Shown here piece after piece: positions 13,322 to 58,457 of a stretch of 64,000 nt of DNA. Location: assembly GCA_026023565.1 (NCBI GenBank), contig JAPETS010000004.1, positions 744,001-808,000 on the forward strand, written 5' to 3'. The position numbers and the translations under genes were made by a program. The notes beneath the pieces are model-generated. The model made no database searches. It saw only the letters and a list, made by a program, of their open reading frames with translations, and was not told the DNA's origin. The DNA comes from Cirrosporium novae-zelandiae. Its lineage: Eukaryota. Each line of letters begins with the position of its first letter. Position 1 is the stretch's first letter.

Positions 13322-13413
13322 GCTTGAGTAGTTCAGGGGTAGAATTCGAGCTTCCCATTTCCTTCCAAATTTTGTGTTTGCTCGAGGCCGGAGTTCGAGT
13401 CTCCGTTCAAGCA
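13322..13413 (+). tRNA. tRNA-Gly(CCC) with 21-nt intron (13358-13378)
   Basis: Acceptor GCTTGAG/TTCAAGC+A, D stem GTTC/GAAT, anticodon stem CGAGC/GCTCG with CCC at 13354-13356, T arm CGGAG-TTCGAGT-CTCCG, T6 terminator; 71 nt after intron removal. Confidence 0.9.
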
Positions 13414-18150: not shown

Positions 18151-18232
18151 CGACGCCGACTGGATTTGAACCAGTGCCTCCGAAGAGATGTGATTTCTAG
18201 TCACACGCATTAGACCACTCTGCCACGACGTC
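18151..18232 (-). tRNA. tRNA-Ser(AGA), intronless, 82 nt
   Basis: GACGTCG acceptor, TGGCAGAGTGG A-box, TGTGA-CT-AGA-AA-TCACA anticodon arm, long variable arm, GGTTCAAATCC B-box, downstream T8. Confidence 0.96.
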
Positions 18233-28880: not shown

Positions 28881-29759
28881 ATGACGGGTAAGGGGCCATA
28901 ATAAGTCCATAACCCTTATTACTCAACCACTAACGCTTCTATAGTCTCACCAATAGATTTCTGTATGACCTCCCCCTCCACCATACTCCCCACCTCTATT
29001 AATCCAAACCCCCACAGACAAAGTCCTCGAAATCTCTCCCACCGCAACCCAACAACAGATCCGAGAAGCCTATAAACGGTACCAACCCCCCTTCCATCTC
29101 TGCAATCCAATTCCTAATACCCCTCCAGTGCAGCCCTAAAATCCCATCCAGACCGTGTCCCTGCCAACTCTTCTGAACGCCCCGCCCGCACCAAGAAATT
29201 CCAACAAGTAAATGATGCCTACTACACATTATCAGACCGATCCCGCCGCCGCGACTACGATGCCGCGCACAAGGTGCAGACCCCGCTATCATCAGGTGCC
29301 CAAACCCCCTCCTCCGCCGACGAAGATATCCCGCGACCAGAAGCAGGGGGTGCCGCTCCCGGTGGTTTCCCATGGTCGGCATTTGGATTCGGAGGGGGAC
29401 AGAGCAGCAGTGGTGGATATACGCCCTCAAAGGATCAGGAGGCATTTTCGTCTGCCCAATTCGGCGATGTGTTTGAGGAAATGCTGAAGGAGGAAGGGAT
29501 GGCCGATTCCAGTACCTCGCAGCCCACTTCCAAGTTCTGGTCCATTATCGGGGGACTTTCGGGGGCTGCCATGGGATTTATTGTGGGAAATATGCCAGGT
29601 GCTGTGGCGGGTGTGGTGGCAGGGAATCGGTTAGGAGCCATTAGGGATAAGAAGGGAAAAAGCGTCTATGAGGTCTTTGCGGAATTACCGCAAGGAGATC
29701 GGGCGAGGATCTTGAGCCAGCTTGCTGCGAAGATTATCGGAGGAGCAGTTGGGATCTAG
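28881..29759 (+). CDS. DnaJ-domain protein, 4 exons
   Basis: DFYKVLEISPTATQQQIREAYKR|AALKSHPDRV..KFQQVNDAYYTLSD..RRRDYD; Gly-rich C-terminal hairpin, AIRDKKGKSVYEVF. Confidence 0.9.
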
Positions 29760-30555
29760 GACGGCTCCTGGTCCTAGGATGGACATGAGATTTTTTTATA
29801 CACATACGCAAGGACGCTGGCGTTACGATGGGGAAAAGGGTTGGACTGGGACCAAAGCCCATTGAACGATTTATGATATACTACGGTTTTTTGAAGCTGG
29901 TCAGTTTTTAGGAATGGAAGGTACAATTAGTTTTCGACGTCAGCACATGCATGATATCCAGAATATTTCAAATGGCGTTGGACGTTTGCCGTATCTATAG
30001 ATATCCCCTCCTTTACTGACCTGTCTCAATGAGTACTCTCGTCATTTAATTTGCCTAAGGACCCCTTCAATACTATAAATATAAATGATGACTTGGATCA
30101 ATCAAATATGGAGCTGGGGAGACTTCCTTAGGATCACTTTCATTTCCACCCGTCGAAAGTACAACACTAGTTAATACACCATATATCTCCTTAAATAATC
30201 TTATTATTTCACAACACTTTTATAAATTACTTAATCCAGCGCCTACACCGAAAAAGAAGAAGAACAAAAGAAAAAAAGGAAAAAAGGAAAAAAGGAAAAT
30301 CTCAGCATTAACCACAAGGCCTTACCAAGCACGCTGACGATGTTTAATCTGGCCCTTTTTACCATTGCTAAACCCCTGTCCACCTTCGATCTCGAGAGAA
30401 AGCAGAGGAGCAGGTTGAATAGGTTCGGATTTATCTTTGTCACTATCGTCGGCACCGCAGCTATTTGCGTCCAAAAGCGAAAGGCTAACTCAGGTGTTTC
30501 TTCTTCGATTTGCTTGCCAAAGAGTAACTCACTTCTATTCCCAAGCCAAAAAAAC

Positions 30556-30707
30556 AAAAATTTGGAGCTTCTCTTTGGTTAAGCGTGTCATCCTTGTGCA
30601 GGGGCCATGCTAATCTTCTCTGTCTGTTTCTGGCGTTAGAATATTTTCGCACGCGTAGGGGGTCACGTGACTCACATCGTTTCAAATTTGACCAAATGCC
30701 CGAAGGC
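30556..30707 (-). ncRNA. SNR6: U6 snRNA gene copy A, with 52-nt spliceosomal intron (30624-30675)
   Basis: GCCTTCGGGCATTTGGTCAAATTTGAAACGAT|intron GTGAGT..CTAAC..ACAG|ACAGAGAAGATTAGCATGGCCCCTGCACAAGGATGAC..; T-run terminator. Confidence 0.95.
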
Positions 30708-30973
30708 GAAAGAATGAGCGAGTAAAATGGTTTATTAATGGAACCTTAATGAGAAAGGTGGGGTTTGGGGTTCAATTCTGAGAGTCTACACAATTCTTTT
30801 TTGACTAACAACTTTTCGCTTACAGTAGAAAACAAGGGCCACGTGCTGCTTTCCCTCATTTGATGGACAAGGAGCACGCCAGCTTTCGCTAGATTAATTT
30901 TATGAAGAATTATTATCAAATGGTACTACTCGGTAAATTAATAACAAAAGTAAAGTACCTAGGTAATTAGCCC

Positions 30974-31074
30974 AAAAAATTTGGAGCTTCTCTTTGGTTG
31001 AGCGTGTCATCCTTGTGCAGGGGCCATGCTAATCTTCTCTGTATCGTTACGTTGACCAAAATGGGGTTTCCCCC
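30974..31074 (-). ncRNA. SNR6: U6 snRNA gene copy B, intronless, variant 5' end
   Basis: GGGGGAAACCCCATTTTGGTCAACGTAACGATACAGAGAAGATTAGCATGGCCCCTGCACAAGGATGACACGCTCAACC..TTTTTT; upstream TATA 31095-31104. Confidence 0.92.
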
Positions 31075-32096
31075 AAAAATTAGGCGGGATTTAGAATATA
31101 TAAAGGGTAGAAAAGCATCAAGATGGGGAGTTCGAATCCGGGAGGGACCAACGACAAATTTTTTTTTTCGCGTTTTCTATTATTTGCACGTAGCTTCTAT
31201 TATTTATCGTCACTTCGAAAAAGTTTCTATTAGGCTTTTTGTTTTGAGAATGTATTTTTTTTCTTATCCACTACAAGGAATTTTTATTAGGCTCGACTCA
31301 TAGATGGGAGATTTTAGTATCTTCTATATTGCAAACACAAATGATACCTCGGGCGACGACACCAAATTCATCTTGAGACTATCTGACGAAATAGTAAAAC
31401 AGTTGATCATGATGGTCGAAAGTGACTATGTCAAAAATTCATCTGACTGCCATTCGAACTAATCTACAATAGCTAAGCAAACTTCAAGGGGTTACCTTAG
31501 CCATCTACAATCTCATCCTTTACTCCCAAACACCCTTTACACAAACTTTTCTCCTAGCTCCCATGCCAGCGAACCCCCTATAGTCCTGAATAATTATATC
31601 AACTCTCTTTTTATCACGATGCAATGCCGCCAAGGTTTCTAGACCTTCCAACTCCAAAAAGAAGAAGTGGGAAGAAGTCCTCTACCACACGCCACACATA
31701 CGTAGAACCTAAGCGGACAAACTGACTGACCATATATGAAGGTACCAAAAAAGTATTAAAAGAAATCACGAAACTAATGCCTTCGCCAAAAAGCGGCTTA
31801 CAACTAAACGGGCAAGTGGCTGCTTCCCTTACTACACAGCCCGTAGACGTTCCTATACGTTAGCCTGGCCAGGCACACACGTTGATTAGAAAGAGGGGCA
31901 TAAATATTTCTTCATAATTCTATCATCACATCAAATCCATGCCAAATGACGCTAATCGCTTTCCCAGATATCCAACATGATCGAACAATGAAATGCATGA
32001 TAGTGCGCCGGTAATGCAAAAGGGGTATGTATGTGAATCTAAGATAAATATGAGGACATTAGGTTTTAGGGCTATTAAATTCGGAAATGAAAGAAG

Positions 32097-33087
32097 TTAA
32101 ACAGCCCTGTAACCTCTATTAACCGCATTATCTTCCGCTAATCCAGCAGGACCTCTTGAATCATTTGTCAAGTATCTTTCTATACTATTCTCTCCGTTGG
32201 CTTCTGTCATGCCAACAGCTCTTTCAAGCTCTTTTAAGCCTTGTGGTATATGCTTCTTGGTCCTTATAGCTGGCAATAGATCGATAAGGAAGCTCAATAC
32301 CCAAAATGTGAATATTAAAGCAATGACCCATTCAATGACGGCACCAGCGTTTGGGCTCTTGTGGCTACCCACGGTGCAGATGCCGAAACCGATAGCGAGA
32401 CCGAATTCGATGATAATGAAGCAGAGCTTAATCCAAAAAGAGATACGGAGGATACGGTGTTGACGGTAGTGAATGCCGAGGCGTTGGTATTCGGCACAAA
32501 GGAAGATAGCGGCAATAATGTAACCAGCAATGAAGAGAAGGAGAAATCCATCATGCAAGCGTGGGTGACGCCATGTATCAAATATCGATAGAAGAATCAA
32601 CCCGCATGTACCCGCGATTGAAAATATGATCGCAAGAATCGAAAGAGCTTTGTCCCACTTGCAGTGGTTCTGGACGAGGAAGCCCTTATGACGAAGCCAA
32701 CGCTCGGAAGCAAAGGAGAGGTCCAGAAAAATTGTTGTGATAACACTGCCAGTAATAAATAGAGGTTTGAGGCCTTGGGCACCGATATCTAAATATAAAC
32801 GCTCTGTTAACTTAGGGGCTCCAGTATAGTTGATGATATCTGATAATTGGCCAAAGCCGATTCTTGCTAAATAAATTCTGGGGGCATTCAAAATCCCCCT
32901 AAATGTAGCTCATCCCCTGTCAAGCCCGATCGAACGTACCGGAAATGTATGCGATATGCTGGCTATCAGACATGCTTGGATACCATGGCGATCCTTGGGC
33001 CAACCACGTTATTAGCATAGCAAGCAGCATTCCAAGCCACATGCATGCTGATATTACTGGAAAGACCCAGTATCCTATTATCCACAT
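32097..33087 (-). CDS. SFK1: Frag1/DRAM/Sfk1-family membrane protein, 2 exons
   Basis: MWIIGYWVFPVISACMWLGMLL..HIAYIS|DIGAQGLKPLFITG..ERWLRH.., LSIFDT.RHP.LHD, AVIEWVIALIFTF. Confidence 0.88.
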
Positions 33088-43972: not shown

Positions 43973-46003
43973 CTAGGTCACTGATATTGATATTATTTTT
44001 ATGTCGGTTTCTGGCTTCTCCTTATAGACTCTCGTGTTTTCAATCCGGTGAATGACATCCATACCCTGGAACGCCCTTCCGAAAATTGTATGCTTCCCAT
44101 CCAACCATGGTGCCTTCTCAACGGTAGTTATGAAGAATTGACTTGCATTTGTATTTGGGCCTGCATTTGCCATGCTCAGCGTATATGCTTTGTCGTGTTT
44201 TAATCCGCCATTGAATTCATCCTCAAACTCTTTACCCCAGATACTCTCACCACCCGTACCATCACCCAAGGGATCTCCACCTTGAATCATGAACTTGCGT
44301 ATAACACGATGGAATATTGTGTTATTATAATAACCGGTTCGAGCATGGGTAACAAAGTTCTCCACGGCCTTGGGTGCCACGAGGGGGAAGAGCCGAAGGT
44401 GAATGTCACCATATGTGGTATGTAGGATGGCGATGGAGCCACTCTCTGTATGCTTTGATTCAGCCTGAGTTCGGGAAGCTTGGTTACGAGGTTTTTCGTT
44501 TTGGACATCCCGTGATGGTCTGTTGATGTCGGTTTCATTGGTGAACATATAAAAGCGTACTTTGCCAGAGGCCGTAGTAGCAAGGAGAGGATCCCTGGCC
44601 TCTGCCTCTTCGAGAAGTGGGTTGGATGATGCCGCCATGGAAATTGTCACGACATTCTTCTTCTGGGGTGCTCCCTGATATAACGCCAAGTTCAGTGCAC
44701 GAAACGGCTCCTCCTGTGCATAAAGTTTGACAATGTGGTTTGTAAGCATGTTGATGGTTTTAATACCGAGAAGAGAACCGTAGATTATGAAATTGCTTGA
44801 TTCGTCAAAGATGATGTTAATTCTGCGATGTAGTGCTGGATGATCCAAATCCCGCTCTACCGCAAGACGACGTCCAAATTCAATATCCTCTAGTTTGATA
44901 TAAGCGGTACCGGCCTGCTGCATGGTAGTAAGGGTAGGGATAGATTCATCGTAGGTACGATGAAGTTTTCCACTAACAAAGTCGAATATTCGTACTTTTC
45001 GATCAGGAAAAGAGAACGTTGCAAAGTGAGTTCCCGAAGGAGATATCGTAATAGAGGTTGGTAGAGATTTAGATTTTTTGAAGTCGAAAAGATTAGTGGA
45101 TGATTTATATTGGAATACAGTATTAGGCTTTTCATAATTCCCGCTAGGTTGCCAGTACTCGACCATTCCATTTTCGTCAGCAGAGACTACACAATCGTAA
45201 CGCTCATTGTAAGCCATAGCTAGAGCAGGTTTACGATGGATGCTCTTCAGCTGGTGAAGAGGGGTCTGATTTTCGCCCCGACCATCGTAAATGTTGATTA
45301 TATTCTCCTCTTCGGAAGAAACGGCTAACAAGGGCAAGGATGCTCCGCGCTGGTGCACCCAACTGATACATCTTGGAACGGTTGAGAGCGTTAGCATCGA
45401 GAGTAGATCTGGAAACGAATTAGCTTCTATATTCTTCATACATAGCACATATCACAAACCAAATGTCACTACATCAAATATCTTCACAGTTTTATCTGCA
45501 CCTGCTGTTGCGAAGCTTCTTCCATCTGAACTTACACTAACCCCCTTGATTTCTCCATTATGTGCTCGAAATTCTTTAACGAATTCAATTCCTTGCGCCA
45601 TCTTCTTCCAGAACTTAACGACACCATCGACGGAGCTCGTAATCAGAAAGTCAGTCAAGGGAGTCATTGTCACAAAGCATAGTTGGTCCCTGTGCATGAG
45701 AGATTTGGAGTAGAGAGGAGAAGTGGGCAAAGCTGAAACGTATAGTTTCTCGTAGGGGAGCTTGCGGCGCTTCTTCTTAGGAGCAGCAGAAGGTAGAACT
45801 GGGCCGAAATCGTCATCCTCCGATGAGGTACCATCTATCACTTAGGTTAGTAAGAGCTATTTAAAAGGTTGGGGCTGTTGAAATAACTTGCTGTTGTAAT
45901 CCTCTCCATTCTTTTGTGAGGTCTGCGCTTCTTTGTCGTCTTGTTCCATCGAGGACTGCGATCTCTTATTTGACCCGGTATCTGTTATATTCCCGGTCTC
46001 CAT
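43973..46003 (-). CDS. PPWD1: WD40-repeat cyclophilin PPWD1/Cyp15, 3 exons
   Basis: YSKSLMHRD..VVKFWKK, EFGRRLAVER, cyclophilin FHRVIRKFMIQGGDPLGDGTGGESIWG. Confidence 0.95.
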
Positions 46004-57326: not shown

Positions 57327-58457
57327 ATGACCGTTCAAAGAGAGTCCCCAGGGATGGAAGGGATTCCAAATCAACCAGTTTTCCATCTACAGACCACAGT
57401 CACATTGGAGAGCAAGCTCAGGTTTGTTGACGTGACTCTTTGGAGTGGACCACATCTAATGATAAAAAAGGATCTAATGAACTCATACACCAACCCTAAC
57501 GATATCCCCAAAGAGCCATACGGTAACCGCAAACGCTACCATGACCACAACGATCTGCATGATCGCAAGGAGTACTGTACTTACTGGATTCGAACTGGTC
57601 ACTGCACCTACGGACACCGCTGCAAATACAGACATGAAATACCAGGAGATGAGCGCACACTTGCACGACTCGGCTTCCGTTCTAATCCCATCCATCGTCC
57701 TTGGGTTGAAATAAAAGATCGTAAACCTAAGCAAAATAACCTAAATTACGACGACAAAGTGTACTGCACATATTGGCTTAAATTCGGAGAATGTGACTAC
57801 TTGCAACAGGGTTGCAAATACAAACACGAGATGCCTGATTTCTCTACTTTGAAAAATATGGGCTTCACCCATGTTCCTCGATGGTTTCGGGAGAATCATG
57901 AAGCACCAGGTTATGATGCCTTGGGCATACCCGAATGGCGATTACCTGAACCTCAAATTTCTGCGGATCGTGACATCAAGGAGGATGTCCAGACCACCAA
58001 ACATGATCTCCCCCAAGAACATCCCCGGGACAGTTCTCAGGATACACATCAGATTTCTGAAGACTCTTACCAGGAGGCTTCTCGGGCCAGTTATCAAGAG
58101 TACTCGCAAGATGTCCAAAGTCAACCCCAATCAATCGAAAACTTTGGATCATCACCTCCCAAATATACATCGACGCCTGAAGCGAAATATTCCCTCAATG
58201 CACTCTATGACGTGCAGAAAATCATTGCGGACTTGCGTCATCGGATATACAATAAAGAAGTCTACATGGAGGTTACAACAAGAGATATATGGAGGTTGCA
58301 AGAAGATTTGACCAAACAAGAGTCATTACTTGAGGATATAAAGGAAAACCTTGTGGTATGTTACCTCTTTGAGCCTAGTCTTATATTAATCGCTCTGTGC
58401 TTCTATGTTCTAGGAGAATGCTTACAGAATATGGGTATAGGAGGATTATTGACTTAA
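57327..58457 (+). CDS. Tandem CCCH zinc-finger protein (ends uncertain)
   Basis: KEYCTYWIRTGHCTYGHRCKYRHEIP and KVYCTYWLKFGECDYLQQGCKYKHEMP. Confidence 0.75.
   Translation: MTVQRESPGMEGIPNQPVFHLQTTVTLESKLRFVDVTLWSGPHLMIKKDLMNSYTNPNDIPKEPYGNRKRYHDHNDLHDRKEYCTYWIRTGHCTYGHRCKYRHEIPGDERTLARLGFRSNPIHRPWVEIKDRKPKQNNLNYDDKVYCTYWLKFGECDYLQQGCKYKHEMPDFSTLKNMGFTHVPRWFRENHEAPGYDALGIPEWRLPEPQISADRDIKEDVQTTKHDLPQEHPRDSSQDTHQISEDSYQEASRASYQEYSQDVQSQPQSIENFGSSPPKYTSTPEAKYSLNALYDVQKIIADLRHRIYNKEVYMEVTTRDIWRLQEDLTKQESLLEDIKENLVVCYLFEPSLILIALCFYVLGECLQNMGIGGLLT

Follow-up and report, generated by a model that had tools for sequence, protein, structure and literature searches.

A pair of U6 genes in one intergenic gap

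The window, that is, the whole stretch of 64,000 nucleotides analysed here, contains two U6 snRNA genes, which lie in the same orientation on the minus strand with a spacer of ~266 bp between them. They share a gap of ~2.3 kb whose flanking genes (29118-29759, plus strand; 32097-32909, minus strand) meet it with convergent 3' ends; one of these neighbours is a DnaJ-domain gene and the other a member of the Frag1/DRAM/Sfk1 family. When the 64-kb window was searched against Rfam at the gathering threshold, two of the three matches were to U6 (RF00026), both on the minus strand, and both copies passed the gathering score of this family (44 bits). Relaxing the Rfam search to E values up to 1 over positions 30000-31700 returned only the two U6 genes, and ARAGORN found no tRNA in the same stretch. 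The open reading frames that overlap the U6 genes (30235-30582 and 30971-31303) were without a Pfam match, and a protein-coding reading of the two loci was therefore rejected.

The simpler of the two genes, copy B (30974..31075, minus strand), is intronless and aligns with the full RF00026 model (positions 1-105; match 30975-31075, 82.2 bits, E 2.3e-19), from a 5' hairpin of the form (U)GGGG-GAAA-CCCC(A) to a T6 terminator at 30979-30974. This is the intronless U6 that the initial annotation had placed about 270 bp from its partner. Copy A, comprising exon 1, an intron, exon 2 and the first T run, occupies 30556..30707 on the minus strand by Rfam match and sequence reading. In the search of the unspliced sequence at the gathering threshold it matched RF00026 over 30556-30658 (77.7 bits, E 5.5e-18). 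However, the 5' part of the model overlies unrelated or intron sequence there, with four non-standard-pair marks in the 5' stem, because the true 5' domain (30707-30676) lies upstream of the match. Such a mis-laid match agrees with a remark in a preprint that standard Infernal searches miss intron-bearing U6 genes (10.1101/2023.05.04.539401).

The true 5' domain is exon 1 (30676..30707, minus strand, 32 nt), which folds a GCC-UUCG-GGC hairpin and continues into the conserved run that ends in AACGAT. By itself it takes model positions 1-34 with standard pairs, at a score that is not significant alone (9.0 bits, E 7.3). The 52-nt intron that follows (30624..30675, minus strand) is of the spliceosomal type, with GTGAGT at 30675-30670, TTCTAAC at 30641-30635 and CAG at 30626-30624; its predicted branch A is 30636, and the 3' AG lies 12 nt beyond. 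Exon 2 (30556..30623, minus strand, 68 nt) begins with the ACAGAGA box (30623-30617), continues through the AGC triad (30611-30609) and the internal stem-loop region, and ends in a T5 terminator (30560-30556). On its own it scores 70.9 bits (E 1.2e-18) against model positions 38-105, on which the box, the triad and the internal stem-loop region of both copies align without a gap. One base past the T5 lies a second run, T7 (30548..30554, minus strand), which by sequence reading is likely a back-up Pol III terminator. Exon and intron lengths were computed by script (32, 68 and 52 nt), and removal of the intron leaves a colinear U6 of 100 nt. The splice junctions cannot shift, since the two differ in their flanking bases, and the U that precedes ACAGAGA comes solely from exon 1.

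Both copies thus have the RF00026 score, the catalytic motifs, the 5' stem-loop and the 3' oligo-U end of a U6 gene. The central claim of the initial annotation, a 52-nt GTGAGT..CTAAC..ACAG intron splitting U|ACAGAGA whose removal restores a 100-nt U6, is borne out by the sequence reading, and its span for copy A and its 30676/30623 junction are correct to the base. On this reading, copy A is confirmed as a predicted U6 gene that carries a spliceosomal intron directly before ACAGAGA and has an intronless paralog beside it.

Comparison of the two copies revealed a sharp boundary between what is shared and what is not. Exon 2 shares 67 of its 68 bases with copy B, and the T at 30581 against the C at 31000, a difference already noted in the initial annotation, is the sole mismatch. 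Exon 1 matches the 5' part of copy B at only 22 of 32 positions and the two differ in length by 3 nt; their 5' hairpins are spelled with different letters and yet both close, with a UUCG loop in copy A and a GAAA loop in copy B. The copies can be told apart by these hairpins and the one base in exon 2, so copy-specific read-outs are possible. Outside the exons we found no resemblance above chance: the local alignment score of the 150-bp upstream flanks was reached by 117 of 500 shuffles and that of the 150-bp downstream flanks by 410 of 500, while a search of the locus for a counterpart of the copy A intron found none (102 of 500 shuffles reached its score). A near-identical exon 2 between flanks at shuffle level indicates that the exons were kept constant while their surroundings were randomised, and suggests that the copies were duplicated long enough ago for neutral sequence to lose all resemblance, with the exons remaining as they were. 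A duplicated promoter block, which a MAFFT alignment had suggested from an A run and a B-box-like site shared by the upstream flanks, was not upheld, its alignment score being the one met by 117 of 500 shuffles. Folding by minimum free energy added no distinction, since neither the precursor (-26.8 against a shuffle mean of -32.2), nor the spliced form made by script (-15.9 against -18.8), nor copy B (-18.2 against -18.5) was more stable than its shuffles.

The host was placed by means of a cyclophilin-WD40 gene, one exon of which (488 aa; 43973-45439, minus strand) matched 7995 of 8000 scored candidate proteins and was 73-74% identical to the best of them (best 120 of the 7995). Because the named matches examined among those listed all belong to Pezizomycotina (Lecanoromycetes, Dothideomycetes, Eurotiomycetes, Xylonomycetes, Geoglossomycetes and Sordariomycetes), the host is a member of this group, a filamentous-type ascomycete, with no close sequenced relative among the listed matches in that database. 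This gene (43979-45829, minus strand), of the cyp15/PPWD1 type, is linked to the spliceosome, and a CCCH zinc-finger protein at 57327-58457 (plus strand) would be Cwc2-like, with a Torus-domain match of 28.8 bits against the Pfam cut-off of 29. That two spliceosome-linked protein genes share the window with the U6 pair is probably coincidence. According to Rfam and ARAGORN, the window also contains a tRNA-Trp(CCA) of 92 nt (13322-13413, plus strand), which probably contains an intron, and a tRNA-Ser(AGA) (18151-18232, minus strand).

An mRNA-type intron in front of the ACAGAGA box

To assess the intron against chance, both strands of the window were scanned with a strict pattern (GT[AG]AGT, 15-70 nt, CTAAC, 6-20 nt, [CT]AG). 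There were six matches, against a mean of 0.75 and a maximum of 3 in 100 first-order random sequences, an eight-fold enrichment; the U6 intron is one of the six, whose lengths are 43, 95, 52, 56, 52 and 51 nt. Chance can be excluded for the U6 intron in particular, because excision of precisely this strict match brings back colinearity with copy B.

The intron was then set against 12 other candidate short introns of the window, namely the five remaining strict-pattern matches and seven picked by hand from an open-frame intron screen. The screen itself began with 143 candidates, of which 91 passed the filter; it proved too noisy for a host consensus, so the strict and hand-picked sets were used instead. 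Of these 12, only 45409-45459 is supported externally: two homologues aligned across it by tblastn as a single segment 57 nt longer than the protein span. The comparison introns measure 43-60 nt, apart from one of 95 nt, begin with GT[AGT]NGT and have a CTAAC- or CTAAT-type branch motif ~10-14 nt from the 3' AG, where one is visible in their 22-nt tails. With its length of 52 nt and branch distance of 12 nt, the U6 intron falls within the host range. The intron of copy A is thus of the mRNA type in its sequence, having the 5' splice site, branch site and 3' splice site of the host's own introns.

The composition of the U6 intron is less typical. Among the 13 candidates, the 12 others being mostly unverified predictions, it has the lowest T content (17%) and the highest G+C content (52%). 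No run of T in it exceeds 2, while 4 of the 12 others have runs of 4 or 5. Runs of T cannot be afforded in a Pol III transcript, and a T-poor intron is therefore what would be expected here. The T-poverty appears to fit Pol III transcription, in a sample that is small and mostly made up of unverified introns. Ahead of the 3' AG, a purine-rich stretch stands in place of a pyrimidine tract.

The position of the intron makes the choice of 3' splice site critical. AGs past the branch A (30636) end at +6, +12, +16, +18 and +21. Only the AG at +12 yields an intact U-ACAGAGA, and it is the first at the usual host distance. The AG at +6 is closer than every branch distance among the comparison introns, and 6 nt between branch and AG is taken as too close, both from yeast splicing in general and from the distances in the host candidates. 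The AGs at +16, +18 and +21 lie beyond the junction, and their use would remove part of the ACAGAGA box; the first of them, 30621-30620, is inside the box. The geometry that the initial annotation had pointed out is therefore correct: the box survives the use of the +12 AG alone, and splicing at ACAG|AGAAG destroys it.

Promoter elements

A TATA element lies ~30 bp upstream of both copies. That of copy A is the TATA-like TTAATAAA at 30731..30738 (minus strand), at -31 to -24, that is, 24-31 bp upstream of the start, for which the layout of yeast U6 genes suggests a promoter function (PMC5855946). That of copy B is the TATA box TTTATATATT at 31095..31104 (minus strand), about -30 to -21, with the same putative function by sequence reading. 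The copy A element is the weaker of the two.

We searched positions 30200-31450 for B boxes with the consensus GGTTCRANNCC, allowing up to two mismatches. Four B-box-like matches were listed. Two are 11-mers on the plus strand with a single mismatch: one at 30769..30779, which precedes copy A by 62-72 bp and lies ~195 bp downstream of copy B, and one at 31129..31139, which is 55-65 bp upstream of copy B; both are weak leads. The others are an opposite-strand reading of 31129-31139 with two mismatches and a weak two-mismatch site at 31290. In the whole window, such 11-mers occur at chance density (28 found, 25 expected), and the only perfect match, 18162-18172, lies within the tRNA-Ser(AGA). 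The better reading of both single-mismatch sites is the antisense one, and each is preceded, at some distance upstream on the U6 sense strand, by an A run. What is noteworthy about them, as a lead only, is their matching position upstream of both copies; if real, this would be a U6 promoter layout with an upstream B block, unlike that of S. cerevisiae or S. pombe. The site at 30769-30779 also stands where SNR6 would have its B block relative to copy B and, again as a lead, could serve that copy as a downstream B block. For copy A, no B-box-like site with up to two mismatches was found within 355 bp downstream or in the intron. Nor did the sense strand offer an A block when matched to the tRNA consensus TRGCNNAGTGG with up to three mismatches. 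The A blocks of U6 genes are degenerate.

The intron of copy A also holds the palindrome TCACGTGA (30663-30670), which we take to be an E-box/Cbf1-type site, and the spacer that separates the U6 genes has a further CACGTG (30840-30845). The window contains 11 CACGTG and two TCACGTGA in total, and their occurrence at the U6 locus may be due to chance.

Does the split copy make U6?

We consider it probable, from the arrangement of the locus, that copy A is an active Pol III gene whose transcript must be spliced. The pair would be transcribed by RNA polymerase III in one orientation, and copy B would be made directly as a U6 of ~100 nt. Copy A would give rise to a precursor of ~152 nt, directed by the TATA-like element at -30 and ended at the T5/T7 terminator, from which the spliceosome would remove the canonical 52-nt intron between ...AACGAU and ACAGAGA. 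The 100-nt product would then be distinguished from copy B by the 5' hairpin, the spacer ahead of AACGAU and one base of the 3' part. As the simplest account, the intron itself may be an insertion that is tolerated, like others near the catalytic centre that have been ascribed to reverse splicing, and it could be spliced constitutively, with no regulatory role required. We infer all four elements of this account from sequence: the transcription of copy A, its splicing, the function of its product and the origin of its intron. In its favour, exon 1 retains a closed 5' hairpin with a stable tetraloop and the conserved run to AACGAT, and the 5' splice site, branch site and 3' splice site all conform to consensus. 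There is also the precedent of S. pombe, together with the many fungi in which U6 introns have been predicted (PMC5855946).

Several observations nevertheless weigh against an active copy A, and they lead to the alternative of a dead or dying duplicate that is untranscribed or unspliced and whose exon 2 stays close to copy B through occasional gene conversion. The TATA-like TTAATAAA is the weaker one, neither an A block nor a B block is recognisable in the classical places (downstream and intron included, for the latter), and exon 1 alone is not significant. The near-identity of the copies is moreover confined to the 68 nt of exon 2 and breaks off in exon 1, as would be seen with conversion tracts that end at the intron. 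Conversion by copy B, and not selection on copy A, could account for the identity of exon 2. However, conversion from copy B cannot hold parts that copy B lacks, and it is because of these parts that an active gene is favoured over a dead copy: the three splice signals, all at consensus, a distinct and still closed UUCG hairpin, the TATA-like TTAATAAA at -30 and the T5-G-T7 double terminator. All of these persist beside flanks that have diverged to randomness, and the intron is free of T runs. We therefore regard a dead copy as unlikely.

If copy A is active and spliced, the question arises whether the pair regulates U6 supply. Such a splicing-gated supply, with the output of copy A proportional to spliceosome activity and copy B as a splicing-independent baseline, would tune U6 dosage through the pair. 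Two intact-looking copies do coexist 266 bp apart, the METTL16-type motif UACAGAR (PMC12371086) would be completed by splicing alone, and a role of this kind has been named for species with mixed paralogs (PMC5855946). The feedback proposed in the initial annotation is in that sense not new, since this 2018 review had already suggested that intron-bearing paralogs might regulate U6 levels. Nothing in the sequence, however, demands regulation, and no regulated element was found in the intron, which has no B box and just the TCACGTGA palindrome. More splicing would yield more U6, which is positive feedback and not homeostasis. A single intron-containing U6 gene is also sufficient in S. pombe (PMC5855946), so that a bootstrap copy is in principle dispensable, inherited mature U6 being enough. 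On balance, a splicing-gated supply seems less likely still than a dead copy.

A more elaborate form of this idea would make the site of the intron itself purposeful. METTL16/Mtl16 methylates the A of the UACAGAR motif in U6, in S. pombe at A37, and in C. elegans methylation of the A-G within a UACAGAR-type motif at a 3' splice site blocks the use of that site (PMC12371086); the initial annotation's identification of the motif as a METTL16/Mtl16 target agrees with this source. In the copy A precursor, a G (30624) and not a U stands before ACAGAGA, so the motif lacks its U and would be completed only by splicing. Copy A could then supply a later-maturing pool of U6 with its own hairpin that tracks spliceosome capacity, against a baseline from copy B, and control could extend to the choice of the 3' AG among five. 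If so, both the amount and the modification of copy A U6 would follow spliceosome capacity, and one of the five nearby AGs would be the same A-G that carries the methylation in mature U6. We hold this to be very improbable.

Finally, that the unspliced or alternatively spliced RNA of copy A is itself the product, either as a variant U6 with another 5' domain or as a decoy for the partners of U6, is hardly credible: the whole catalytic part is intact in exon 2 (ACAGAGA, AGC and internal stem-loop region) and the Rfam model takes the unspliced 30556-30658 at 77.7 bits, but that alignment has four non-standard-pair marks in its 5' stem, the consensus splice signals favour removal of the intron, and the AGs at +16, +18 and +21 would delete part of the box. 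An active copy A with a constitutively spliced intron would remain the most plausible of these readings.

Two pattern scans of a metagenome collection, run without a positive control and so of no bearing on rarity, gave 0 stretches each: one looked for CGAT and ACAGAGAAGATTAGCATGG separated by a GT..AG gap of 38-68 nt, the other for an AG adjoining the ACAGAGA core on its 5' side.

Placed among known U6 genes, copy A appears to be a further example of a class that has already been catalogued. U6 introns provided early evidence for U6 at the catalytic centre and for splicing running backwards. Those of S. pombe and other fungi lie near the catalytic motifs, and reverse splicing has been proposed as their origin (PMC5855946), as the initial annotation also states. 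In the survey of 145 fungal genomes by Canzler, Stadler and Hertel (2016), as it is summarised in that review, many species have evolutionarily unrelated U6 introns, a single gene carrying as many as four; these introns have canonical signals, are otherwise unconserved and concentrate near the ACAGA box and the internal stem-loop, while the genomes average 2.3 U6 copies and include paralogs with and without introns (PMC5855946). These introns are predictions for which experimental validation is still called for (PMC5855946). Copy A resembles them in its canonical signals, its site near ACAGA and its mixed paralogs. An intron-bearing and an intronless U6 side by side would offer a natural test bed for expression, splicing and the control of U6 levels through splicing, all of them questions raised in the same review (PMC5855946).

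The sole U6 gene of S. pombe, with its spliced mRNA-type intron next to the AGC triad (Tani and Ohshima 1989, per PMC5855946), is similar to copy A in being a Pol III U6 gene with a short spliceosomal intron in the conserved catalytic region, whose excision is needed for mature U6. The S. pombe intron, however, lies by the AGC triad and carries the B block of a single-copy gene (PMC5855946), whereas that of copy A lies directly 5' of ACAGAGA, has no B-box-like site (up to two mismatches) and belongs to a gene with an adjacent intronless paralog. Fungal U6 promoters are flexible: the B block is inside the intron in S. pombe, and the S. cerevisiae gene combines a TATA box upstream, an A block within the gene and a B block downstream, as reviewed by Didychuk, Butcher and Brow (PMC5855946). 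SNR6 of S. cerevisiae shares with both copies described here a TATA element ~30 bp upstream and a T-run terminator (PMC5855946). SNR6 has no intron, its A block is internal and its B block lies downstream, whereas copy A is without a downstream B-like site; the B-like sites of the two copies, unlike that of SNR6, lie 55-72 bp upstream and read best on the antisense strand. The sams pre-mRNA of C. elegans, a target of METT-10, offers an analogy only: it shares a UACAGAGA-type motif whose central A-G can be a 3' splice-site AG (PMC12371086). The counterpart in copy A would be the cryptic AG at 30621-30620, 16 nt past the branch A, in a precursor motif that, unlike the C. elegans site, lacks the leading U.
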